Source: Christensenellaceae bacterium
GTDB lineage: Bacteria > Bacillota > Clostridia > Christensenellales > Aristaeellaceae
Reading direction: 5' to 3'
DNA length: 36,658 bases
Assembly: GCA_012797085.1 (NCBI GenBank)
Contig: JAAZPT010000365.1
Location: 1-36,658 of the forward strand
The position numbers and the translations under genes are program-made. The notes beneath the pieces are model-generated. The model did no database searches, was not told where the DNA came from, and saw only the letters and a list, made by a program, of their open reading frames with translations. Positions within the stretch are counted from its first letter, which is position 1. Each line of letters starts with the position of its first letter. This document shows, piece after piece, positions 1 to 36,658 of the stretch.

Positions 1-83
1 CTATTTGTTTAATTAATAAAAAAATTAAACTCAATTAATAAATATTTGTTAACATGGCAAATATTAATATATTTGGAGGATTT

Positions 84-1613
84 ATGAAAAAAAAGAGAAG
101 AGTTTGGAGAAAACTATTATTTTTAGTTATTGTTTTAGCCTTTATAGGCGCGTTTATAGTTCCAAAGTTGCAGGATAATTTTAGCAACAGTGTGCTTGCA
201 CCGGTGCCAAGCCATAGAATCGTAAGGGGCGATATTGATGTTACAATCACAGGCAGCGGTATATTGGAATATCAAAACGAAGCAACAATAAACTTGCCCG
301 AGGGCATTAAAATACAAAAGATATTTGTAAAAGAGGGCGATGCTGTTTCCGAAGGTGATGTTTTAGCCGCTTTGGATAAGGACTCTGTAGAATATCAAGT
401 TGCTATATTAAGTGCGGATATTGAACAGCTTGACTTTAACCTCACGAGCCGTAAAACCATAAGCACGGTAAGCTCTCCTGTAAAGGGCAGGGTAAAACAC
501 ATAGACGTTGACCTTAATGACGATGTAATTGAGGCCATAAATAAGCATGGCGCCTTGGCAATATTATCCGGCGACGGTCTTATGAAAATAGCTTTAAAAA
601 GCGATGAAAAGCTTGCCTTAAATACTGAGCTTACAGTTAAGTGGGATGATGAAGAACAAAGCGCTAAAGTAGTAAAGAACATTGAAGGCGGCTATATTAT
701 CACCCTTGATGACAAAAAAGCCCCCTATTTAAAACAAGCTGAAGTTTACAACGGCAAACAGCTTTTAGGTTCGGGCATATTGGAAATAAATGCTCCCATT
801 TCTATATATGCCAACGGCGGCACTATAAAAACAATCCATGTTGATATAAACAGTCAAGTAGATGCAAGAACAAAGCTTTTTACATTGGATAATGAACCCG
901 CTACGGATGCTTATCGCAAAACCTTGGCCGAGCGTAAGGAAAAGGCTCAAGAGCTGCAAAACCTGTTAAAATACAAACAAAACCCCAATGTTATTGCATC
1001 GGAAACCGGAATTGTAAGAGGTATATTTGTTGAAGAGGACGTAAAAACTCAAAGCATAAATAATGACAGCGAAATAAAGGCCTTTGAGCTTGCAACGGGT
1101 GGGGCTATAAAAATGACAATTGGTGTTGATGAGCTTGATGTTAACAGCGTGCAAGTGGGTCAAAATGCAAAAATCACATTGGATGCCTTTAGCGGTGAAG
1201 AGTTTACGGCAAAGGTTACAAGGCTCTCCAATATAGGAAAGGCTGCCGGCTGCATTACAACATACGATGCCGACCTGATTTTAGAATATGATGACAGGCT
1301 TAAAGATGCTATGAACGGCAGTGCGGCAATACTTGTAAACAGTGTTGAAAACGCTTTGATAGTACCTCTAAAAGCCGTTGAGGAGGATGAAAACGGCTCC
1401 TATGTGCTAATACTTGACGGGGAAAACCAACAGACCAAAGTATACATCACAACAGGCTTATCCGACGGCAAAAATGCGGAGGTATTAAGCGGCCTGAAGG
1501 AAGGGGATAAAATAGTTTTACCCGCTACCATTTTACAGCAACATAAAGCCATAGAATTTGGAATGGGCCCAAGGGACCCCGCCCCAACAGGAGGCGATAT
1601 CGATGACAAATAA
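84..1613 (+). CDS. Membrane-fusion (HlyD/MacA-type) adaptor subunit of a MacB-type ABC efflux system
   Basis: ORF 54..1613. GGAGGA at 75-80 favours the ATG at 84 (MKKKRRVW followed by a hydrophobic anchor). Split lipoyl-type halves are present (IFVKEGDAVSEGDVLAALD ... SPVKGRVKHIDV), followed by a beta-barrel-like C-terminal part. The stop overlaps the start of the next ABC ATPase gene. Confidence 0.8.
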   Translation: MKKKRRVWRKLLFLVIVLAFIGAFIVPKLQDNFSNSVLAPVPSHRIVRGDIDVTITGSGILEYQNEATINLPEGIKIQKIFVKEGDAVSEGDVLAALDKDSVEYQVAILSADIEQLDFNLTSRKTISTVSSPVKGRVKHIDVDLNDDVIEAINKHGALAILSGDGLMKIALKSDEKLALNTELTVKWDDEEQSAKVVKNIEGGYIITLDDKKAPYLKQAEVYNGKQLLGSGILEINAPISIYANGGTIKTIHVDINSQVDARTKLFTLDNEPATDAYRKTLAERKEKAQELQNLLKYKQNPNVIASETGIVRGIFVEEDVKTQSINNDSEIKAFELATGGAIKMTIGVDELDVNSVQVGQNAKITLDAFSGEEFTAKVTRLSNIGKAAGCITTYDADLILEYDDRLKDAMNGSAAILVNSVENALIVPLKAVEEDENGSYVLILDGENQQTKVYITTGLSDGKNAEVLSGLKEGDKIVLPATILQQHKAIEFGMGPRDPAPTGGDIDDK

Positions 1614-2322
1614 AAACAAACCCATAATTCAAATGAAGGGCATAAGCAAGTTTTATAATGTGGGCGGCGAGGAAGTCAGGGCCCTGGATAATGCAAGCAT
1701 AACAATATACGAAGGTGAATTTGTTGCCATTATAGGCCCCAGCGGCAGCGGAAAATCAACCCTAATGAATATTATAGGCTGTTTAGACGTTGCCGATAAG
1801 GGAGAATATTTGCTTGATGGCCAAGCCATAGAAAAATACACCGACAGCGAACTTGCAAAAATACGCAACAAAAAAATAGGCTTTATATTCCAAAGCTTTA
1901 ATCTGTTATCCCGCATGAGCACCTTTGATAATGTTGCCTTGCCGTTAATTTACCAGGGCATGCCTATGCACGAGCGCAAACAAAGGGCCATGGAGGCCAT
2001 TGAAAGGGTTGCCCTTGCAGATAGGGCCAAGCATAAGCCAACGGAGCTTTCCGGCGGGCAGCAGCAGCGTGTTGCAATAGCAAGGGCATTGGCTACACAC
2101 CCTACAATACTTTTGGCCGATGAACCTACAGGCAACCTGGACTCCCGCACAGGGGAGGATATTATGCACTTGTTTCACGAATTGCACGAGGCAGGCAATA
2201 CAATAGTACTTATAACCCACAGCGAAAAAATTGCCCAACAGGCCGAAAGGCGTATACGAATAATGGACGGTCACGTAGAGGAAGAACCCTACACCTTTAA
2301 AACGGAAGGGGGAATTATATGA
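1603..2322 (+). CDS. ABC transporter ATP-binding protein (MacB/LolD/FtsE-like)
   Basis: Walker [13 protein letters not shown] signature [15 protein letters not shown], Walker [14 protein letters not shown]-loop ITHS. AGGAGG at 1588-1593 precedes the ATG at 1603, so the longer ORF from 1558 is probably read-through of the upstream gene's 3' end. Confidence 0.9.
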
Positions 2323-3485
2323 TAATTCAATCTGTAAAAATGGCTTGGGAGGCCATAACATCAAATAAAATGCGCTCATTTTTAACAATGCTCGGCATTA
2401 TAATAGGCGTTACAGCCCTTGTGGTATTGGTATCCCTGGTAAACGGCGCAACAAGCAGCATAACAAGCGAGGTTGAGGCCTTAGGCAACGATATGATAAG
2501 CGTTAATGTTTTTGATGATAAGGGATTACCCCTACGCTTGGAGGATTTAAATACCATTGCAGAGTATGAAAGCGTTGCAAAAATTGCTCCAAGCGGCTCA
2601 AGCAGTGCAAAAGTAAAGTATTTAAACAAGGATATGGAAATTTCACTATATGGCACAACCCCCGCCTATTACAACATACAGGGCTTAAAATTGGACTACG
2701 GCAGGTTTTTAAAATCGGCCGATTTGGATAACAGGTCCTATGTGGCGGTATTAAGCCATGATACAGCTAAAGAGCTTTTCAGTGATACCGATGCCTTGGG
2801 TAAAAATATTACAATAGACGGCCGTATATTTTTAGTTGTTGGCGTGCTGAAGGAGGATGAATCCTTCATGGGAGCTTTTATGGGCAGCAAAAGCATATAT
2901 GTTCCCTATACCGTTGAAAGCCGAATGTCCGGCATACCCTATATTATCAGCTTTAATGTAGCCTCTACGGACAATACTGCGGCGGAGTCGGAAATAAATA
3001 GCATGCTTTTACAACGCTTTAAGCAGGATGAAGAAGCCTTTAACGTAATAAACATGTCCACAATATCAAGCACTATGGACACAATTACAGGCACATTAAC
3101 ATTGCTTTTAGGTGGAATAGCAGCCATATCCCTGCTTGTAGGCGGCATAGGCATAATGAACATAATGCTTGTATCCGTTACGGAGCGCACAAAGGAAATA
3201 GGAATTCGCAAGGCCATAGGGGCCGGCTATGGCAGCATAATGGCACAGTTTTTGGTGGAAGCCCTTATGTTAAGCTTGCTCGGCTGTACAATAGGCCTGC
3301 TTTTATCCTGGGGCTTGCTGGAATTGGCAACAGCCCTTGCCGGCAAAATTAAATTTACAATGACTGCAGATGTGGTTGCATTGGCTGTCGGCTTTTCATC
3401 GGCAATAGGCCTTATATTCGGCCTGTACCCCGCAAACAAGGCCGCAAAGAAACACCCCATAGAAGCCCTCAGGTATGAAGGTTAA
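2319..3485 (+). CDS. ABC transporter permease, MacB/FtsX family (four TM segments with an extracytoplasmic domain)
   Basis: ATGA overlap with the ATPase stop. N-terminal TM (FLTMLGIIIGVTALVVLVSL), an extracytoplasmic domain of about 220 aa, three C-terminal TM segments, and the family hallmark TERTKEIGIRKAIGAG between TM2 and TM3. Confidence 0.88.
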   Translation: MIIQSVKMAWEAITSNKMRSFLTMLGIIIGVTALVVLVSLVNGATSSITSEVEALGNDMISVNVFDDKGLPLRLEDLNTIAEYESVAKIAPSGSSSAKVKYLNKDMEISLYGTTPAYYNIQGLKLDYGRFLKSADLDNRSYVAVLSHDTAKELFSDTDALGKNITIDGRIFLVVGVLKEDESFMGAFMGSKSIYVPYTVESRMSGIPYIISFNVASTDNTAAESEINSMLLQRFKQDEEAFNVINMSTISSTMDTITGTLTLLLGGIAAISLLVGGIGIMNIMLVSVTERTKEIGIRKAIGAGYGSIMAQFLVEALMLSLLGCTIGLLLSWGLLELATALAGKIKFTMTADVVALAVGFSSAIGLIFGLYPANKAAKKHPIEALRYEG

Positions 3486-3604
3486 AAAACTTTACTTAAA
3501 CTTTACACTACCCCCCAGCATTTTACATTCCCTTTGTAAACTAAATTATCATAAACACTCTAAGTGTGTATATGTAAAAAGTTTATAGGAGGAAATAATA
3601 CTTT

Positions 3605-5728
3605 ATGAAGAAATTTTTGGAATTTAAAAGAAGAGTTTTATTACTTGTTTTAACTCTTGTATTGCTACTTGGCAACACCGGTTTTGCTGCGACTTTTACC
3701 GACATTTCAGGTCATAAATATGAAGAGGCCATAGCAAGGCTAGCGGAAAAAGGCATAATTAGGGACTTTGGGGACGGAAGTTTTAAAGCTGACGAGGTAC
3801 TTGATGAGGATGCCGCTTCGGATATGCTTTTCAACGCCTTTAAACTTTTACCGGTTTACCCGATAGAAGATCCGGGTCCGGATGAAGACGGCAACGTTTT
3901 TGAAAAAGCTTTATATTCAACGGAAACAACAACCGCAAATGTAACATCTGCAATGTTGCCTGCTGCACCGGATACAATGGGTACATGGTCTGAAAACATA
4001 ACAAATGCCGTTATAGAAGCAAGATTGTTGGAGGATGACCCGGAAAATAAAATTACAGAAAAAGAATTTGCAACTGCAATTTCTAAGGCTCTATTAGGTG
4101 CTGATAAGGAAATAGACTTTATTGCAGAAGGAAAAGAGAAGGAAATATTACCAAAAGACTTTAACCCTACGGATAATGAAATATTGAGGGGAAATGCCGC
4201 ATATCTATTGGATTATGCCATTAAGGATTTAAATATAATAACAATTATGGCTACATCGGATATCCACGGAAACATTTTACCCTACAAGCGTGGCGGCTCA
4301 CCTGTTGAAGTTGGCGGCTCCGCAAAGGCAGGCTTCCTGTTTGATGAGATGAAGAAGAAAAACCCCAATACATTAATACTTGACGGTGGAGACTCACCAT
4401 ATAATATGGATATAGTAAACCACTCTAAAGGAAAAGCCAGCGTAGACATTATGAATGCTCAAGGTTATGATGCAACGGTTTTAGGAAACCACGACTTCGA
4501 CTATGATTTCGAGAATCTTCTATTATTGGCAAAAAGAGCTGACTATGCTATGTTAAGTGCCAATACCTTCTGGAAGGACGGCAGATACCCTGAAGAATTT
4601 AAACCCTATATTATAAAAGAACTCGACGGATTAAAAATAGGCATTGCCGGCTTAACGGACGACTTAAGCAAGTTGACAACCCACTATGAAAACACAAAGG
4701 ACATTGACCTTTATGACCAATGGGAAGTAGGAGAAAAAACCATAAAAGAATTGGAAGATAAAGTAGATATTATAATCTTACTAGCCCATCTGCACTCACA
4801 CAACAACAGTATTCCCGAAAAAATAAACAATATAGACCTTATAATAGCAGGTGGAAACGATACATTCGGAAGACCTATATTGAAGAATGATTCCATAATT
4901 ATAAACCCCGGCGGAGTTGGAGTTGCAGTTAACCAAATCAACCTTAATTTAATTAAGGGGCAAATTATAGGCTATACCTTCAACCAAATATACTTAAGCC
5001 CCAATGTTCCTGAAAAGGAAGAAGTAAAGGCTATAGTTGATCACTACAAGGCGGATTTGGAAGCCTCAATGTCAAAAGTTGTAGGAAAGAGCACTGTTGA
5101 TATAGCATGGTCATCACCCTTGGTTAGAACACAAGAGCATGAACTTGGCAACTTTATAGCTGATGCCTTAAGAGAATTTGGCGATGCGGATATCGGAATA
5201 ATGAACGGCGGAGGAATTAGAGGTGGACTTACAGAGGGCGACATTACTGTAGGTGACGTATTTAAAATTTTGCCCTTCGACAATAAGGTAACCGTACTTG
5301 AAGTTACAGGTAAAACTTTATTTGAGGCTCTTGAAAACGGCGTTTCAGGCTATCCCGAAACTCGCGGAAAGTTCCCACAGGTTTCCGGAATTAAATATAC
5401 CTTTGACGGTGCAAAACCGGCCGGCGAAAGAATAGTTTCCGTAACAAAGACCGACGGAAGCCCCATAGAGATGGATGCTTGGTACAAGTTGGTATGCAAC
5501 GACTTTATGTCGGGCGGCGGGGACGGATATTCCATGTTTAACGTACTGAACCCCGAAGGCGGTTTAGGTTCCGATACGGACTTTAAAGATTTAGAAGGCT
5601 GCAAGTTGGTATATGCAACAAGCATTTTCTACAGAAACCTCCTCACGGATTATATAAGGGAAAAGGGTGTAATTACACCTGAAATAGAGGGCAGAATAAC
5701 AATACTCAACCCTCAAGAAGTTAAGTAA
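3605..5728 (+). CDS. Secreted SLH-domain 5'-nucleotidase / metallophosphoesterase (UshA-like)
   Basis: AGGAGG upstream and a signal-like N-terminus. One SLH-like segment (FTDISGHKYEEAIARLAEKGIIRDFGDGSF). Metallophosphatase motifs SDIHGN, LDGGDS, GNHDFDYD. The C-terminal 5'-nucleotidase-type region carries GGGIRG and FMSGGGDGY. Confidence 0.85.
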   Translation: MKKFLEFKRRVLLLVLTLVLLLGNTGFAATFTDISGHKYEEAIARLAEKGIIRDFGDGSFKADEVLDEDAASDMLFNAFKLLPVYPIEDPGPDEDGNVFEKALYSTETTTANVTSAMLPAAPDTMGTWSENITNAVIEARLLEDDPENKITEKEFATAISKALLGADKEIDFIAEGKEKEILPKDFNPTDNEILRGNAAYLLDYAIKDLNIITIMATSDIHGNILPYKRGGSPVEVGGSAKAGFLFDEMKKKNPNTLILDGGDSPYNMDIVNHSKGKASVDIMNAQGYDATVLGNHDFDYDFENLLLLAKRADYAMLSANTFWKDGRYPEEFKPYIIKELDGLKIGIAGLTDDLSKLTTHYENTKDIDLYDQWEVGEKTIKELEDKVDIIILLAHLHSHNNSIPEKINNIDLIIAGGNDTFGRPILKNDSIIINPGGVGVAVNQINLNLIKGQIIGYTFNQIYLSPNVPEKEEVKAIVDHYKADLEASMSKVVGKSTVDIAWSSPLVRTQEHELGNFIADALREFGDADIGIMNGGGIRGGLTEGDITVGDVFKILPFDNKVTVLEVTGKTLFEALENGVSGYPETRGKFPQVSGIKYTFDGAKPAGERIVSVTKTDGSPIEMDAWYKLVCNDFMSGGGDGYSMFNVLNPEGGLGSDTDFKDLEGCKLVYATSIFYRNLLTDYIREKGVITPEIEGRITILNPQEVK

Positions 5729-30317: not shown

Positions 30318-31361
30318 TTATAAATTTTCTAAGTTTATTAATTCATTTTTTATATTATCTGCAAAAGCCTGTAATGCATTAAGTTTTTGTTTTATGTTGT
30401 TACAATAATATTGTGAATTAATGGAATCTTTATTTATATCTTTATTATACTCTAAAATTTTTTGTTTGATTAGCTTGGAATTGCTATCCAAATATGTCCT
30501 TTTAAAAACTCTGTCAATCTCTTTATGTTCGGCGCTTAAGCTATTTTTATAGCTTGAAGGGCTTTTTGAAAAATGACTTTTAAAATAATAGTTAAAGGAT
30601 TTTACATCGGCAAAACCATTTTTATAAGCCACATCCGCTATAGATAAGTTTGTTTCCCTTAGGTCTATGATAGCCTCCCTAAGCCTAATACGTGTAAGAT
30701 ATTCATAAAAGCTTACACCGGAATGTTTTTTAAAAAGTTGTGATACATAGTTGGTATTATAACCGCCAATACGACCAAGTTCTTCAAGGCTTATATTGTT
30801 CATATAGTTTTTATCTATATATTTGCTCATTTTTTTAATAGGGTTTTCGGTTTTCCCTCTAAAGGCTTTAAAATTGTTTTCTAAAACAAAAGTTTCCAAA
30901 TTAAAAAGTGGACTTATGGCACTTAGTAAATTTAAAACAACTTGTAAATCTTTATTTTTATCATCAACAGCAATTAATTCCATTAAATTAGCAGCACATT
31001 GACGTATAGCAATTGCTTCAGCAGAATACCTATTGTCATCAGATGGAACAAAATTTAGATAAATATTATTCTTTAATTTACATATTGCTTTGAATAAATC
31101 CAAATCAAAATGCACAACAAAAGCGACACATTCTTTGCTAATGGCAAAAGTTGTATGCCCTTCTCCCGGATTTATTATTATAATATCATCCTCATACATG
31201 GCATAGCTTTTACCACCGCTTGTAAGTTCTAAATTTCCCTTTAAAACTATTAACAGCTCCACCTGATTATGCCAATTATAATGATAAGAGCCTATGTTGT
31301 ATGCATAATACTCAATATTAAAAATATCTAATTTTGTTTTTGTACTATAATATAGTTCCAC
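30318..31361 (-). CDS. AraC/XylS-family transcriptional regulator (cupin sensor plus double HTH plus C-terminal helical extension)
   Basis: Cupin-like N-terminus (IIINPGEGHT) and an AraC HTH region (ISLEELGRIGGYNTNYVSQLFKK...IADVAYKNGFADVKSFNYYFKSHF). Apparent GTG start. About 70 further residues follow the HTH. Confidence 0.85.
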   Translation of the reverse strand: MELYYSTKTKLDIFNIEYYAYNIGSYHYNWHNQVELLIVLKGNLELTSGGKSYAMYEDDIIIINPGEGHTTFAISKECVAFVVHFDLDLFKAICKLKNNIYLNFVPSDDNRYSAEAIAIRQCAANLMELIAVDDKNKDLQVVLNLLSAISPLFNLETFVLENNFKAFRGKTENPIKKMSKYIDKNYMNNISLEELGRIGGYNTNYVSQLFKKHSGVSFYEYLTRIRLREAIIDLRETNLSIADVAYKNGFADVKSFNYYFKSHFSKSPSSYKNSLSAEHKEIDRVFKRTYLDSNSKLIKQKILEYNKDINKDSINSQYYCNNIKQKLNALQAFADNIKNELINLENL

Positions 31362-31431: not shown

Positions 31432-31458
31432 AAAAAAGAACCTTAATTAGGTTCTTTT
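31432..31458 (-). terminator. Rho-independent terminator ending the permease/adaptor operon
   Basis: The minus strand reads AAAAGAACCT aatta AGGTTCTTTT TTAGTTT. The hairpin overlaps the TAA at 31443-31445. Its symmetry means it could also terminate plus-strand transcription. Confidence 0.65.
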
Positions 31459-32489
31459 ACAGTAAATAATAATGTTGTGCCTACCCGCAATTCTCTAATT
31501 TTATCGGACATTAATTTTACTTCATATAGGCCCTTATCATCCGGTATAAAGGCTATGGAGTCTATAATGCATTCTACATTCTCAATTTTCAAGCTTTCTA
31601 TATTTGCTGTAAGTATATCCCCTACTTTTATGCGGCTTATTTCAAGCTCATTAAGGTTGGCGGAAACATACATTTCTTCGCTGGCAATATAGTTTGCAAT
31701 GCCTGAATTAACTTCGGCCGTATCGTTAACCTTTTTATCAAACTTTGTAATTACACCGTCTTGAGGCATTTTAACTATGGGATCCTGACCGTCATAGGAG
31801 CTTTTTGTATATATAAACAATGGATCTCCTGCTTTAACCTTATCGCCACGTTTGCACAGCATTTTAATCAGTGTGCCCTCCGCATTTACAGCAACGGGGT
31901 CCGTTCTTGCTATTGTGCCGCTGCCAAGGCGCATTTTTGCATCAAATGTGCTGCTGCGGAATATGAACACCCTGCTATCATAGCGCATATCCCCTTCAGT
32001 AATTTTTACGGTATAGCCATCCTTATCCCTTGCAACAATTATACCTTTGCCTGTTTGAGTTACGTCGCTGCGGTTTTGTATGTATACGGTTTCGCCTAAC
32101 TGGGCAACCCTATACTCATAGGGGCGACTGCTATGCAAATATGTACATTTTATTGTGCCGTTGTCTTTTGCATCTATGTATATGCTTGCCTTAAGCAACT
32201 CTTTAATTATGTCAAGGTTGTCCCCCGTTTTAGCTAAAATAACACCTATTGTTCCATCAACAGGAGAATAGCATATATCACCCTCTACTTCAAAAATTGG
32301 AGTATCTTTTTTTATAAGCTCATTCTCTTTTACAAATATGTTTTTTATTGAGCCTGAGAAGGGTACTTGAAGGGAAATTTCTTTACCTGCCCTTACTTTG
32401 CCCTCAAACATCCACTCATAATCCTCCATTAAAGCAACAGGCATAACGAGCATTAATGCAATTAAAAGTGCAAGTATTTTTTTAATCAT
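31443..32489 (-). CDS. Secreted/anchored HlyD-like adaptor protein with two lipoyl-type (barrel-sandwich) modules and no coiled-coil hairpin
   Basis: N-terminal hydrophobic anchor ILALLIALMLVMPVAL. GSIKNIFVKENELIKKDTPIFEVEG is followed almost directly by YSPVDGTIGVI. A second module reads KRGDKVKAGDPLFIYT ... MPQDGVITKF. Overlaps the upstream gene by 8 nt. Confidence 0.6.
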   Translation of the reverse strand: MIKKILALLIALMLVMPVALMEDYEWMFEGKVRAGKEISLQVPFSGSIKNIFVKENELIKKDTPIFEVEGDICYSPVDGTIGVILAKTGDNLDIIKELLKASIYIDAKDNGTIKCTYLHSSRPYEYRVAQLGETVYIQNRSDVTQTGKGIIVARDKDGYTVKITEGDMRYDSRVFIFRSSTFDAKMRLGSGTIARTDPVAVNAEGTLIKMLCKRGDKVKAGDPLFIYTKSSYDGQDPIVKMPQDGVITKFDKKVNDTAEVNSGIANYIASEEMYVSANLNELEISRIKVGDILTANIESLKIENVECIIDSIAFIPDDKGLYEVKLMSDKIRELRVGTTLLFTVKEPN

Positions 32490-33528
32490 AAGCTTTGTTC
32501 CCCTTTCGGTTAAAAATAATTGTGCTGAAACTAAATATCGATAGCGTGCTTAATATATTAATTATACGCTGAAAACTGTTTAACATTACAACTTGCGGTG
32601 TTCTTAATACAACAAGTTTTGAGGCTGTATTTACATTGTTGATATATGTTTTTTTAATCATATCAAAATCCACAAGAATTTCCGGTACCCATTCGGGAAA
32701 CTGCAACAGAGCCTCTACAATAAAATACATTAGAAAGCCGTATGAGGCGGCAATTACACCAAAGCCACATATAAAGGATAACACATGGCCTGTAATTTGC
32801 AAGGGTATTTGACTTGGATATTTTTCAACAAGCAATGCTTTTATCTTTTTAAAATTAAGACTTAGCCATTTTTTAAAAATTCTTAAAACATAGGTTGTTG
32901 TAATTAAGCCATATAAAAATATAACAAATTTTACAATAAGCGTTGCCCTTTGTTTTTCCTTAGGCAAGTTCCAAACATTTTGAGTAAATTTTGTATTAAA
33001 CTCTGTAACATCAAAAAAATTTGGGTTGCATGTATAAATAAGCAAATCCGCCTTTGTTTTTGCTTTAACCGCTGTTACAAAGGGTATATATACATTCTTT
33101 GTAAAATTTTCCTGAGCCGCAGAATCAATAATACCAACAACTTTATATTTTTCCTGATTAATTAAAATTTCTTTACCTAAGGCGGATTCACTGCCTGAAA
33201 CAACTAATGCAATTTGCTTATCAATAATTGCAACATTAGCCTCTTCTCCCCTATAAAAATAGCGACCCTCTATTAATTTTGCGTGGTAACTATCAAAATA
33301 ATCGTGGCTAACTGCATGCAGCTCGGCGCCGGTGCTGGCCTTAGCTAAGCTAACGGCAGCATTTTGTATTGTAAGCTCGCCGGTATACTTAACTTCAAGG
33401 TCAATTTCCTCCACATTGGGGTTTTGCTCAATATATTGATAAACCCCCGGTATATTGGCAACTTGAACCCAAAAATATGCAATTAAACCAAGGCAAAGCA
33501 CAAGTAATATTGCCCAAACTTTTTTCAT
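32482..33528 (-). CDS. Membrane protein with MacB/FtsX-like topology (TM1, extracytoplasmic domain, three TM segments), highly divergent
   Basis: TM1 is VWAILLVLCLGLIAYFWV. The extracytoplasmic segment resembles the MacB periplasmic core (VAIIDKQIALVVSGSESALGKEILINQEKYKVVGIID). Three later hydrophobic spans follow. It lacks the RTKEIGxxKAxGA motif present in the canonical permease at 2319..3485. Confidence 0.55.
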   Translation of the reverse strand: MKKVWAILLVLCLGLIAYFWVQVANIPGVYQYIEQNPNVEEIDLEVKYTGELTIQNAAVSLAKASTGAELHAVSHDYFDSYHAKLIEGRYFYRGEEANVAIIDKQIALVVSGSESALGKEILINQEKYKVVGIIDSAAQENFTKNVYIPFVTAVKAKTKADLLIYTCNPNFFDVTEFNTKFTQNVWNLPKEKQRATLIVKFVIFLYGLITTTYVLRIFKKWLSLNFKKIKALLVEKYPSQIPLQITGHVLSFICGFGVIAASYGFLMYFIVEALLQFPEWVPEILVDFDMIKKTYINNVNTASKLVVLRTPQVVMLNSFQRIINILSTLSIFSFSTIIFNRKGNKAYD

Positions 33529-34805
33529 TACTTATTCTCCATTATTCTGGCTTTTTCACTTATTGCCCTATCCTCACGGTCTATTACCTGGCTCATAATT
33601 TCCTCAGAAATTGCAACTTGATCATCATTTTTGCCAAGCACTGTAACATTTAATTTCTCGCAAACATAATAGCTGCTCATAATTCCGCCATCAGTCCATT
33701 TGGCTATGTAAACAAAGGTTTCATCACCATTTTGACGCAGGGCTGATGCAGGTATTAGTGTGCTTGCTTGTGTCGCACGTTTTGTAAGGGTAAGCTGAAT
33801 TTTTTCCAAATTCATCATAGCTTTAAGGCCGCTGTTAGCATCTATAAGTTCTTGAGTGAGTTCAAAATCTGCATAGCGTTGACCTTCTTTGTCTTTGCCT
33901 GTGCCCTTTAAACCTACGGAATAACTGCCCCAATCGCTTTTTACCTTGGCCTTTGAGCCATCACTGGGCAATTCATCAAGCTCTTGCACAAAAGCGCGCA
34001 AAACGGGTGGATTTTTCGCAGGGCTAAGCTTATAAAGTGCCTTTGAGCCGTTATAATCCTCGCCTGCTTTAATCTCTAAGGAGGTAATTATGCCATCTTC
34101 CTCTGCCTTAATTTCGCTAAGTTGTAAAACGGCATAGTCCAAATCGGTAATTTCTTTTTCCTTAATATCCATTTGTTTTAATAACTCATCACGCTTTTTA
34201 ACGTATTCAAAGCCTTCATCGTTTGTACTTGAGCCATACCTGTTTAATTGTTTATATAAACTGTTTGCCTTATCAAATTCCTTTTGTTGCGCCTCCCATG
34301 CCTTGGGATTTGCTTCCACCCCTTCTATTCTTGCACGGGTATTCTCGGCTGTTTTGGCCTTAATAAGGGCGTCATTAGTTTCCAAAAGTTTATTGTAAGC
34401 ATCATTTTTTTGTGTTGATGTGGGATATTTAGCATTTTTTGCATCCAAATCAAGCAATTCCGCCGTTATTTTAATAAGATCGTCGCTAAGGTCACTTTTT
34501 CTTTTTTCTGAATCATTTATATAGGCATCAAAAATAACATCGCCTTTTTCTACTTTATTGCCCACGCCAAAATATATGGCATTTATAACAATTGGATATT
34601 TTTGTGCAAGGTTAATAATTACCTCCCTCTCCTCAGGGTAAAAAACCTTGCCCTCTAATACGCTATTGGTAACCATTCTACCACGATCGGGATAAGTAAA
34701 CCTTGCCTTTGCCGTTGTTACTGTTTGAACCGTTCTACCAAAAAACAAACAAACACCTACAACTACTAATAAAATTATAAGGCCACGTACAGCAAATTTT
34801 TTCAT
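33528..34805 (-). CDS. HlyD-family membrane-fusion/adaptor protein with a long coiled-coil hairpin
   Basis: TM anchor GLIILLVVVGVCLFF. Lipoyl halves (VGNKVEKGDVIFDAY ... AEEDGIITSLEIKAGED) flank a helical segment of about 130 aa. C-terminal barrel-like region. GAGGTAT RBS overlaps the stop of the upstream permease gene, leaving a 13-nt gap. Confidence 0.75.
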   Translation of the reverse strand: MKKFAVRGLIILLVVVGVCLFFGRTVQTVTTAKARFTYPDRGRMVTNSVLEGKVFYPEEREVIINLAQKYPIVINAIYFGVGNKVEKGDVIFDAYINDSEKRKSDLSDDLIKITAELLDLDAKNAKYPTSTQKNDAYNKLLETNDALIKAKTAENTRARIEGVEANPKAWEAQQKEFDKANSLYKQLNRYGSSTNDEGFEYVKKRDELLKQMDIKEKEITDLDYAVLQLSEIKAEEDGIITSLEIKAGEDYNGSKALYKLSPAKNPPVLRAFVQELDELPSDGSKAKVKSDWGSYSVGLKGTGKDKEGQRYADFELTQELIDANSGLKAMMNLEKIQLTLTKRATQASTLIPASALRQNGDETFVYIAKWTDGGIMSSYYVCEKLNVTVLGKNDDQVAISEEIMSQVIDREDRAISEKARIMENK

Positions 34806-34818
34806 TATATAAAATACC

Positions 34819-35679
34819 TCATTTCATTTCGGACAACTGCAAGCCTTCTGTAATATCCTTTTGGAAAAAGAAAAATACAAACAGTGCCGGTAGAATGTAT
34901 AATACTGCGCCTGCAAAAGCTATTTCCGCATTTTTATCGCCTATTACGTTAAACATAACGGATAGAGGCATAAGGTCTTGCCTGTTGGATAAAAATGCAA
35001 GGGGTTGTTCCGCCATATTCCAAATATCCGCAAAGGATAGGGATACTGCCGCACCAATTATAGGTTTTGATACGGGCAATGCCACATAAAAGAATGTACC
35101 GAAGGCACCACGCCCATCCAAGGCTGCCGCCTCCAAAAGCTCTGTGGGAATATTCAACATATATTGTCTTAGCAAAAATATATAGAATGGCGAAAAACTT
35201 GCCGGCAATATTATTGCCCATATGCTGTTGAGCAAGCCCAACTTTTGCAATGTTAGTATATTAGGTGACATTGTTACCTGGAACGGTAAAACCATAAGCA
35301 CAATTATCATAAAAAACAATACGTTTTTGCCTTTAAACCTCAACTTTGCAAGGGCAAAGGATAATGCCGGAATTACTAAGGCTTGGCCTAATAAAATTAA
35401 ACTAACATATATTACTGAATTGGTAAACAGCTTTAGTATGGCCGGGTCACCTATAAAAATTTTATAATGTTGGTTTAGTGAAAACCTGCTTGGAGTAAAA
35501 TTGGATACTATCCATTTTGTATTATCAAAATTGTTGCGACTTTTTAATATGCCTGTAATTTCATCGGGATGAAAAAAGGAATATGAAAATGTTCTGACTA
35601 ATGGAAAAAGTGTTATTACAACAATTGAAGCTACAAATATGTAAACAAATATTTGGGATAATTTAAAACGCTTTTTCAT
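34819..35679 (-). CDS. Carbohydrate-type ABC importer permease (MalG-like, binding-protein-dependent family)
   Basis: Six hydrophobic spans and an EAA loop LLEAAALDGRGAFGTFFYVALPVSKP. 286 aa. An 11-nt gap separates it from the upstream permease gene. Confidence 0.85.
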   Translation of the reverse strand: MKKRFKLSQIFVYIFVASIVVITLFPLVRTFSYSFFHPDEITGILKSRNNFDNTKWIVSNFTPSRFSLNQHYKIFIGDPAILKLFTNSVIYVSLILLGQALVIPALSFALAKLRFKGKNVLFFMIIVLMVLPFQVTMSPNILTLQKLGLLNSIWAIILPASFSPFYIFLLRQYMLNIPTELLEAAALDGRGAFGTFFYVALPVSKPIIGAAVSLSFADIWNMAEQPLAFLSNRQDLMPLSVMFNVIGDKNAEIAFAGAVLYILPALFVFFFFQKDITEGLQLSEMK

Positions 35680-35690
35680 ATAATTACCCC

Positions 35691-36545
35691 CTAACCTAAG
35701 GCACTTGCATTGCGTTTTTGCATTAAATAAAGCAACGCAAACACCGCAATAACCACTGCCGCAAATATGTAAGCACCCGCCATAACATTGGAATAATTTA
35801 GCTTTTGGAACATGTTATTCATGTAGTTTTGGAAGGTGTAAATACTCTCATCCGGATAAGGGCCGCCTATATAATAGGCCTCCCTAAATATTTTAAAGCT
35901 GTTTATACAGGCAAACACCATTACTAAAAATGATGATGGCGCAATAAGGGGCAATGTGATTTTAGTTTCACGCTTTACAAAGGATATGCCCTCAAGGTCG
36001 GCATACTCATAAAGGGATTGGGGTATTGCCTGCATTGCCGCTGAAAAAACTATTGCACAAAAGCCTATGTTTTTCCAAAGATACAGCAAAATTACAGGAA
36101 CCCTGAGCATGCTGCCGCTTAGCCATAAAACCCTTTCAATGCCCAATATACCTAATATACGGTTTAGCATACCGCCCCAGTCAAACAACAATAAAAAATA
36201 TAGCAATATTGCACTTGACGGCATAATATAGGGCACAATAAGGGTACCCGTTACAAAGCTTATTTTTTGTTTTGTGCGCTGTAAAACCACCGCAATAAGA
36301 TAGGCTATAAGCCAACAAATAGGCGCACCTATTGCTGTTAACAACAAGGAGTTTTTTAAGCCGAGTACAAACATGGGATTTTGAATTATTTTAGTATAGT
36401 TTTCAAAACCTATAAAAACGCTTTTTGCGGTATCGCTCATAAGGCTTAAATAAAAACCCCATACAAAGGGTACTGCATAAAATGTAAGTAGGCCTATAAG
36501 GCCCGGTAATATAAAACCTAAAGTAGCGCGTTTACTATAACGCAA
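35691..36545 (-). CDS. Carbohydrate-type ABC importer permease (MalF-like)
   Basis: EAA-type loop YEYADLEGISFVKRETKITLPLIAP. The ORF is open from a TTG at 36590, but GGAGG lies 9 nt before the TTG at 36545, which gives MRYSKRATLGFILPG, a typical N-terminus. The start is therefore uncertain (36545 or 36590). Confidence 0.8.
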   Translation of the reverse strand: MRYSKRATLGFILPGLIGLLTFYAVPFVWGFYLSLMSDTAKSVFIGFENYTKIIQNPMFVLGLKNSLLLTAIGAPICWLIAYLIAVVLQRTKQKISFVTGTLIVPYIMPSSAILLYFLLLFDWGGMLNRILGILGIERVLWLSGSMLRVPVILLYLWKNIGFCAIVFSAAMQAIPQSLYEYADLEGISFVKRETKITLPLIAPSSFLVMVFACINSFKIFREAYYIGGPYPDESIYTFQNYMNNMFQKLNYSNVMAGAYIFAAVVIAVFALLYLMQKRNASALG

Positions 36546-36581
36546 TTTGAAAAACCTCCAATAACAGCAATTTTGCTGTAG

Positions 36582-36608
36582 GCCTGCCAAGCATAATACT
36601 TGGCAGGC
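36582..36608 (-). other. GC-rich intercistronic stem-loop upstream of the first permease gene
   Basis: GCCTGCCAAG, a 7-nt loop, then CTTGGCAGGC (10-bp perfect stem). No T-run follows on the minus strand. It lies between a 9-codon ORF tail at the window edge (stop at 36630-36632) and the permease start. Confidence 0.5.
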
Positions 36609-36658
36609 TTATAAGTTTAGTTTTCTTGATTAATTTCCTTCAAGGGTCATCATTTTAA

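Follow-up and report, generated by a model that had tools for sequence, protein, structure and literature searches.

Membrane-fusion proteins (MFPs) and MacB-type membrane proteins are regarded as components of machines for export or extrusion, and what they do in bacteria that have no outer membrane is an open question. A locus in a 36,658-nucleotide (nt) stretch from a Christensenellaceae bacterium (GenBank assembly GCA_012797085.1, contig JAAZPT010000365.1; this whole stretch is referred to as the window) puts the question in a particular form: why are such proteins encoded together with the permeases of an importer? Five close-packed open reading frames (ORFs) on the minus strand (31443-36590) encode, in this order, two importer-type permeases (permease 1 and permease 2), an anchored MFP (MFP-A), a four-transmembrane (TM) protein with a MacB-type periplasmic core domain (PCD4TM) and a second MFP (MFP-B). 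The module ties MFPs and a MacB-type protein obligatorily to an importer, and its MacB-like member is without the element by which an ATPase docks. With its importer genes and its genes for three proteins that are otherwise known from efflux pumps alone, the composite operon seems to specify a type of uptake machine not described before.

Conservation of the composite operon

Along the five genes, read 5' to 3', the spacing is +11 nt, +13 nt, a 1-nt overlap (TAATG) and an 8-nt overlap. A GAGG that overlaps the TGA stop of permease 2 lies 9-10 nt 5' of the MFP-A ATG. The gene positions, the gaps and overlaps and this ribosome-binding site laid across the stop codon are all as they had been read in a preliminary description of the locus.

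Linkage between the two halves of the operon was tested from three separate entry points, namely MFP-A, PCD4TM and permease 2. The search for MFP-A homologues gave 23, down to 27% identity, and seven of seven MFP-A neighbourhoods (28-87% identity) have two BPD_transp_1 genes followed by MFP-A and then by a MacB_PCD gene, with one to three large genes resembling those of substrate-binding proteins (SBPs) upstream. For PCD4TM, genomes were scanned with a family motif taken from a 10-sequence subset, the 61-sequence alignment being too diverse. All 12 loci found in this way, in Oscillospiraceae, Clostridia and Bacillota metagenome-assembled genomes (MAGs), have this module, up to the limits of their contigs. 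No cultured isolate is evident among these 12 loci, ten of which are labelled as MAG or uncultured and two as "bacterium isolate".

The permease 2 alignment had more than 510 confirmed matches in metagenomes, a large share of which come from samples of human gut, rumen and digesters, and the best 80 of these were inspected. Of the 96 loci with 400 nt or more of sequence downstream of permease 2, 94 have MFP-A as the very next gene, and of the 79 with 2.2 kb or more, 77 have both MFP-A and PCD4TM there. Clustering of permease 2 at 95% identity gives 36 clusters (24 at 80%), and both genes are present in all 36. In most loci permease 2 and MFP-A are -4 to +21 nt apart, and the linkage still holds where the distal proteins share no more than 22-30% identity. 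A conserved co-occurrence with MalFG-type permeases, which the preliminary description had put forward for checking in other genomes, was thereby recovered from all three search starts. Assemblies made independently (NCBI, ENA, JGI and Logan) repeat this gene order, their flanks being different and the protein identities 22-59%; chance juxtaposition is therefore excluded, and the locus is very probably a real composite module, self-contained and vertically conserved.

The apparent exceptions to the linkage are in short metagenome contigs (L077, L101, L102 and L067) that break within MFP-A or shortly behind its start, or switch there to NlpC/P60, to the nucleotide-binding domain (NBD) of an ABC exporter or to BPD_transp_2, and these breaks are likely assembly chimeras. 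L077 and L101 were rejected as exceptions and regarded as contig breakpoints because the first 65-90 nt of MFP-A are kept, after which similarity ends. L102 was rejected as an MFP-A::BPD_transp_2 chimera, and L067, a 2.3-kb contig, has an ABC_tran ORF where permease 1 would be expected. All carriers are Clostridia apart from L017 and L021 (CAVDRM010000017.1), which are labelled Anaerovibrio sp., a Negativicute that would be diderm. This label may be a binning or labelling error, or else the module may occur in a diderm Firmicute.

A MacB fold without the coupling-helix motif

PCD4TM scores 44 bits against Pfam MacB_PCD (PF12704), a domain found in 61 of 61 relatives, and its profile matches the periplasmic-domain structures of MacB and YknZ. 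The AlphaFold2 (AF2) model built on the 61-sequence alignment (mean predicted local distance difference test, pLDDT, 92.6) has TM1, a mixed alpha/beta domain of about 170 amino acids (aa) and three further long helices, the helices spanning residues 2-24, 197-235, 242-275 and 311-339. The top 47 Foldseek matches of this model are all of MacB/LolC/E type (MacB, LolC/E, YknZ, Spr0695, HrtB, YbbP and YtrF) or are the periplasmic domains of such proteins, with a Foldseek probability of 1.0 to MacB and LolC/E.

The major coupling helix, which contacts the NBD, is located between TM2 and TM3 (PMC5985334). When the PCD4TM profile is aligned with E. coli MacB, the MacB segment between these helices, TERTREIGIRMAVGA, falls on a stretch that is not conserved. 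The coupling-helix motif was searched as E[RK]x[RKQ]E[IVLF][GA], the FtsX-type consensus being ExxREIGxxxAxGA, and was matched in one of 150 representatives of the PCD4TM family, the single match being in the periplasmic domain. The Pfam FtsX domain (PF02687) was detected neither in the PCD4TM of the window nor in any of the 61 relatives. A canonical permease encoded elsewhere in the window (2319-3485) served as the positive control and gave an FtsX score of 73 bits together with the coupling motif VSVTERTKEIGIRKAIGA. Between this permease and PCD4TM, hhalign aligned the periplasmic domain alone (97.5% probability). PCD4TM, a membrane protein, has the fold of MacB, whereas the FtsX signature is lost, and with it the coupling-helix motif between TM2 and TM3. 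The label "FtsX-like" given to it in the preliminary description holds for topology, periplasmic domain and fold, whereas the Pfam FtsX domain itself is undetectable.

Two other features are the most conserved ones of the family. The hallmark FPEWVPE[IV]LV[DE] is extracytoplasmic and stands at the end of TM3, where it opens a TM3-TM4 loop of about 35 residues, and the tight cytoplasmic turn between TM2 and TM3 has a nearly invariant tyrosine (Y237). A word-indexed homologue search with PCD4TM returned the protein itself and one relative, and an exhaustive HMMER search was needed instead. This gave 224 cluster representatives at 50% identity, 83 of them at E <= 1e-10, mostly of 340-420 aa and matched over the periplasmic domain as well as the TM region at the C-terminus.

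A variant of about 550 aa occurs as well (L045:12246-13910, L008:11447-13114, P0032, P0045, P0061, P0070 and others). In L045 the 554-aa protein ends in a predicted cytoplasmic domain resembling SCP2_2, i.e., a sterol-carrier-like domain, at the C-terminus. MFP-B is missing from seven loci with wide flanks, in clades with a longer PCD4TM, five of the seven having the 554-aa form.

An ATPase shared among transporters and encoded elsewhere, of the MsmX/MsmK type, is usual for the carbohydrate importers of the CUT1 family in Firmicutes. To follow the operon beyond the window edge, we used L001, a 23.5-kb Logan contig with genes identical to those of the window. It has two genes for binding proteins of about 720 aa directly 5' of permease 1, so the operon starts outside the window, and there is no ATPase gene in the operon on this longer contig. 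Inside the module, no NBD-like ORF was found in any of 103 loci, either by BLAST with the NBD of the window or, separately, by Walker A and signature motifs. Nine NBD-type ORFs near modules belong to other ABC types; most of them lie on the opposite strand, and none is conserved. The earlier statement that no ATPase is in view is thus borne out on the extended contig and across the loci, and the nearby dedicated FtsE-like ATPase that it had considered as a sign of an ordinary exporter did not turn up inside the module in the 103 loci. The accompanying expectation that a MacB-like protein needs a dedicated ATPase is weakened by the loss of the coupling-helix motif from the PCD4TM family. PMC7658222 is devoted to the ATPases that type I importers share.

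Parts of the operon and its surroundings

The features of the operon and its edges are collected in Table 1. The start of permease 1 is most likely the TTG at 36545, which follows a GGAGG and is the start called on the longer contig, and not 36590.

Table 1. Positions of the operon features in the window
Feature	Position	Strand	Basis or remark
bigSBP2 gene, 3' end (last 29 nt; 721 aa whole)	36630..36658	-	cut by window edge; complete on L001
Intercistronic stem-loop between bigSBP2 and permease 1, no U-tract	36577..36613	-	12-bp perfect stem
Permease 1, MalF/UgpA-like, 284 aa	35691..36545	-	BPD_transp_1; listed ORF reaches 36590
Permease 2, MalG/UgpE-like, 286 aa	34819..35679	-	BPD_transp_1
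MFP-A, membrane-fusion protein with N-terminal TM anchor and putative long helical hairpin, 425 aa	33528..34805	-	weak HlyD_D23; family profile
PCD4TM, four TMs and MacB-type periplasmic core domain, 348 aa	32482..33528	-	MacB_PCD; AF2; Foldseek
MFP-B, homologous to membrane-fusion proteins, no hairpin, signal peptide or anchor, 348 aa	31443..32489	-	Pfam; profile
Intrinsic-terminator-like hairpin at operon end	31434..31458	-	10-bp stem and UUUUUU
AraC-family regulator gene, downstream of operon	30318..31361	-	Pfam AraC_binding, Cupin_2, HTH_18

Both permeases match Pfam PF00528 (BPD_transp_1) with 41 bits for permease 1 and 51 bits for permease 2, above the gathering score of 26.4. The best NCBIfam matches are UgpA, GlcT and MalF for permease 1, all far below the equivalog cut-offs, and UgpE and MalG for permease 2, also below the cut-offs. 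The EAA-type loop of permease 1 (YEYAxLEGA...ITLP) and the EAA loop of permease 2 (ELxEAAxxDG) are invariant across the family, which agrees with the importer-type assignment made at the outset. The permeases form a subfamily of their own, with 50-59% identity within the family and scores far below every NCBIfam equivalog cut-off.

MFP-A scores 25.7 against Pfam HlyD_D23, below the gathering score of 30, and its family profile matches HlyD (8dck, 5c21), MexJ, MacA and EmrA weakly (E = 2e-4 to 5e-2). Its N-terminal TM segment and the FFxxTxxTxTTAK motif that follows are among the best-conserved parts. MFP-B is above threshold for Biotin_lipoyl and Biotin_lipoyl_2, and it also matches HlyD_3 (23.4 against a threshold of 22.2) and HlyD_D23; in NCBIfam it reaches 54 bits for RND_mfp, which is below the cut-off. 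No curated family was found for MFP-A, PCD4TM or MFP-B in the NCBIfam scan. The MFP-B profile matches MexJ (1.7e-12), the "Membrane fusion protein" chain of PDB entry 4kks (8.7e-12), Spr0693 (5e-11) and also MacA, in keeping with the earlier view of this protein as a second, hairpin-less adaptor. It has a duplicated lipoyl-like region and no long helical hairpin. We take the 4kks chain to be Borrelia BesA.

The MFP-B gene stands at the end of the operon, as it does in the window, or else ahead of the binding-protein genes. Its start is abutted or overlapped in 32 loci by the gene for a large, secreted, proline- and threonine-rich protein of about 480-965 aa (protein X), with a conserved C-terminal region of about 390 aa. 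These loci belong to the clade with MFP-B upstream and include L071:3547-5559, L040:3489-5495, L022:1200-3242 and L069:2525-5422. The representative L071:3547-5559 has no Pfam match, and protein X does not occur in the clade of the window.

The binding proteins (bigSBPs) are encoded by one to three genes per module. The bigSBP2 protein of the window is identical to one from a Christensenellaceae MAG. On L001 the complete bigSBP2 gene is at 3245-5410 and its paralogue at 1017-3194; the extension past 36658 that the preliminary description had advised therefore yielded two binding-protein genes and no ATPase. Single bigSBP sequences gave faint SBP_bac_1 matches alone in Pfam. A profile of 23 family members matches the CUT1 sugar-binding proteins 4zza/4zs9 at positions 311-592 (E = 3e-16), a region that also matches xylo-oligosaccharide (XOS)-, maltose- and trehalose-binding proteins, and positions 41-286 match a PQQ-type propeller weakly. 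The AF2 model is poor overall (pLDDT 52.7), the propeller part alone being usable: residues 40-215 are all-beta with pLDDT 75-90, and Foldseek relates them to generic six- to seven-bladed propellers. The predicted architecture is an N-terminal beta-propeller, a sugar-type SBP and a helical tail of about 130 aa.

Among bigSBP clusters, 48 of 52 have no lipobox and carry AxA-type signal peptides. The anchorless state was considered as a sign of a retention scaffold, and this was dropped: lipobox absence is not module-specific, because adjacent ordinary CUT1 SBPs in L006 (18128-19390, minus strand) and L007 (18152-19465, minus strand) likewise have AxA-type signal peptides and no lipobox cysteine. 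Lipobox-free SBPs are unusual for monoderms and raise the question of how these proteins are retained. Directly 5' of the first bigSBP gene, the clade of the window has a gene for a pyroglutamyl peptidase (Peptidase_C15; L001:345-938, L006:1151-1753 and L007:1153-1743), which in L006 overlaps the next start by 4 nt.

At the RNA level, the 87-nt region between bigSBP2 and permease 1 has a predicted fold of -30.5 kcal/mol (z = -5.2). The stem-loop in it is probably an mRNA-stability or attenuation element for the upstream binding-protein message, setting the SBP:permease ratio. The hairpin at the other end overlaps the MFP-B stop (-15.7 kcal/mol, z = -4.6) and with its U-tract corresponds to the single terminator noticed after the last gene. 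A tRNA upstream was the sole match in an Rfam scan of the operon and its leader. An internal promoter, which had been named earlier as a possible sign of independent regulation of the distal genes, gains nothing from the promoter-like consensus sites inside the operon, which are not enriched (21 observed, 29 +/- 5 expected), and the permease 2/MFP-A junction is tight; the count as such neither demonstrates nor rules out an internal promoter.

The AraC-family gene downstream is present in the nearest relatives of the window (L001-L005 and L013) and not in most other loci, and its product is a possible regulator of the operon. An AraC-like ORF is also found upstream of the module in L057. In L010 (1116-3778), a gene for an extracytoplasmic function (ECF)-type sigma factor and two genes of unknown function are found upstream of the module and point the same way, and the Sigma70_r2/r4_2 family is represented in two of 83 surveyed flanking ORFs. 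This suggests regulation by envelope signals in some clades as opposed to AraC in the clade of the window. The 83 flanking ORFs, from 14 diverse loci, contained no recurrent Pfam family and no consistent substrate clue; GH2, AraC, ECF sigma factors and Pcp are single-clade flanking genes each. Assignment of a substrate from neighbouring genes was abandoned; the flanks are unrelated between lineages.

At the other end of the window, on the plus strand, 54-3485 holds a canonical exporter (MFP, ABC_tran and MacB_PCD/FtsX), which served as positive control and had already been pointed out as a textbook set. Beside it, at 3605-5728 on the same strand, is a gene for a 5'-nucleotidase with SLH domains, and the host therefore uses SLH-type wall anchoring.

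The trio as a possible part of the importer, and its likeness to known systems

Our preferred reading, which is a tentative one, is that the module is a CUT1-type importer that has its ATPase encoded elsewhere and carries, as a permanent fitting outside the membrane, an unpowered scaffold resembling MacA/MacB. The permeases and binding proteins would work together as a type I ABC importer that takes up an oligosaccharide-like solute and draws its energy from a shared ATPase of the MsmX/MsmK type, encoded at another site, and MFP-A, PCD4TM and MFP-B would form an unpowered MacA/MacB-like extracytoplasmic assembly belonging to that importer. If the hexameric tubes of the MFPs YknX and pneumococcal Spr0693 are a guide, this assembly may be a cage or funnel in the wall zone that docks the large binding proteins and/or guides substrate to the permease. 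The preliminary description had put forward, as hypotheses, a conduit across the wall or a coupling of uptake with export. The evidence somewhat favours a trio that does not act as an efflux pump in its own right, while its role as a scaffold or funnel is a possibility that we hold more loosely.

Several points weigh against this reading. It presumes that the trio contacts the permeases or the binding proteins, and the bigSBP model is of low overall confidence. Oligosaccharides cross peptidoglycan freely, and the need for a funnel is not obvious. Neither the SCP2-like domain on PCD4TM in the clade without MFP-B nor the cytoplasmic pyroglutamyl peptidase gene in the clade of the window is explained by sugar capture. 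The conservation of Y237 hints at some cytoplasmic partner, and to our knowledge all characterised MacB-type membrane domains work with an NBD; PCD4TM may have an ATPase encoded in trans, the absence recorded here covering the 103 loci.

Some of these points lead to the best-surviving alternative, namely two separate machines that are co-transcribed: a sugar importer and a MacAB/YknXYZ-like extruder, e.g., for a toxic by-product, a peptide or a lipid, that borrows an ATPase encoded elsewhere. An MFP with a MacB-type membrane domain is the standard efflux and detoxification set of Gram-positive bacteria (PMC5985334), and PCD4TM has the MacB fold. The conserved cytoplasmic tyrosine in its TM2-TM3 turn would suit such an extruder, and the SCP2-like domain of one clade could indicate a hydrophobic ligand. 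However, PCD4TM has lost the FtsX signature and the coupling-helix motif, the 103 loci contain no module ATPase and no conserved one nearby, and the linkage to the importer, with overlapping or near-abutting frames, is obligate in 36 of 36 clusters, which exceeds the usual co-regulation of independent systems. We regard two machines as unlikely.

The same obligate linkage could be read as the sharing of one motor, such that an MsmX-powered MalFG-type core moves PCD4TM sideways in the membrane, and the periplasmic domain and the MFP cage do mechanical work in loading or releasing the large binding proteins or in pulling a polymeric substrate. Such a hybrid would account for a mechanotransducer fold kept without a coupling helix or NBD of its own and for the absolute linkage to EAA-bearing permeases. 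The best-conserved parts, i.e., the TM segment of MFP-A and the FPEWVPE TM3-TM4 loop, are consistent with specific contacts within a complex. It is, however, without precedent, and we consider it rather improbable. The broader idea that the importer core and the trio constitute one "tripartite importer" of monoderms, be it by motor sharing (a type I/type VII hybrid) or as an MFP uptake funnel across the wall zone that supplies the propeller-bearing binding proteins, is doubtful, although conceivable.

It is very improbable that the module works outwards, the MalFG-type pair not importing and the whole placing secreted proteins (the bigSBPs or protein X) or a surface glycan. All accessory proteins are indeed extracytoplasmic, and the proline- and threonine-rich protein X is translationally coupled to MFP-B in 32 loci. 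On the other hand, the binding-protein domain is that of a typical CUT1 sugar binder, protein X is not in the clade of the window, and we know of no characterised BPD_transp_1 system with binding proteins that is anything other than an importer. Chance juxtaposition or an assembly artefact in a single contig, to which prior probability and the chimeric joins in three short metagenome contigs alone lend colour, is refuted by the repetition of the gene order across independent assemblies, flanks and degrees of identity, and its probability is negligible.

With the importer and its putative unpowered scaffold as the preferred reading, the module offers itself as a natural system in which to study the role of MFPs in monoderms. 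It is not rare, as there are 224 PCD4TM clusters at 50% identity and more than 510 permease matches in metagenomes. If it is one machine, it would be a new architecture of ABC transporter, common in gut and rumen Clostridia, and a possible Gram-positive counterpart of the surface capture devices of Bacteroidota. The preliminary description knew of no described counterpart, and our full-text literature searches likewise found no account of an importer operon with MFPs or with an NBD-less MacB-like protein, an absence that is not proof.

The comparison with known systems places each part near a different relative. MFP-B resembles the hairpin-less MFPs represented by the 4kks chain in its lipoyl and beta-barrel parts and in having no long hairpin; it differs in its duplicated lipoyl-like region and in being encoded with an importer and not with an RND (resistance-nodulation-division) pump. 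PCD4TM shares its fold, its four TMs and the large extracytoplasmic domain between TM1 and TM2 with the type VII ABC mechanotransducers MacAB-TolC, LolCDE and FtsEX. Those systems need docking of an NBD via the major coupling helix, whereas PCD4TM shows no conservation of this element and has no linked NBD.

Closer in setting are YknWXYZ of B. subtilis and Spr0693-0694-0695 of S. pneumoniae, which have in common with the module an anchored MFP, whose hairpin is a putative one in MFP-A, a four-TM protein with a MacB periplasmic core and presumably a monoderm host, and there are profile and fold matches to YknZ, Spr0695 and Spr0693. The MFPs of Gram-positive MacAB-like systems form hexameric channels of a height that fits the wall-proximal zone (PMC5985334). 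In the exporter at 54-3485 of the window, MFP, ATPase and FtsX-type permease are encoded together, as in YknXYZ and Spr0693-95; in the trio of the module they are not. The module has no ATPase partner, FtsX domain or coupling-helix motif, an enlarged and conserved TM3-TM4 loop of PCD4TM replaces the short "shoulder", and the genes of the set invariably form part of an importer operon.

By its permeases, their EAA loops and the sugar-type SBP, the module has the sequence characters of the CUT1 family, and apart from the ATPase it has a full complement of importer parts. It shares with the CUT1 importers of Firmicutes that use a shared ATPase (MalEFG/UgpBAE-like, with MsmX or MsmK) the two EAA-loop BPD_transp_1 permeases, a sugar-type SBP gene upstream, the operon without an ATPase gene and the stem-loop between SBP and permease genes. 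The module differs from them in that its SBPs are fusions of about 720 aa of a propeller, an SBP and a helical tail, and in that it always adds a MacB-like membrane protein and two MFPs, or one in some clades, to the importer.

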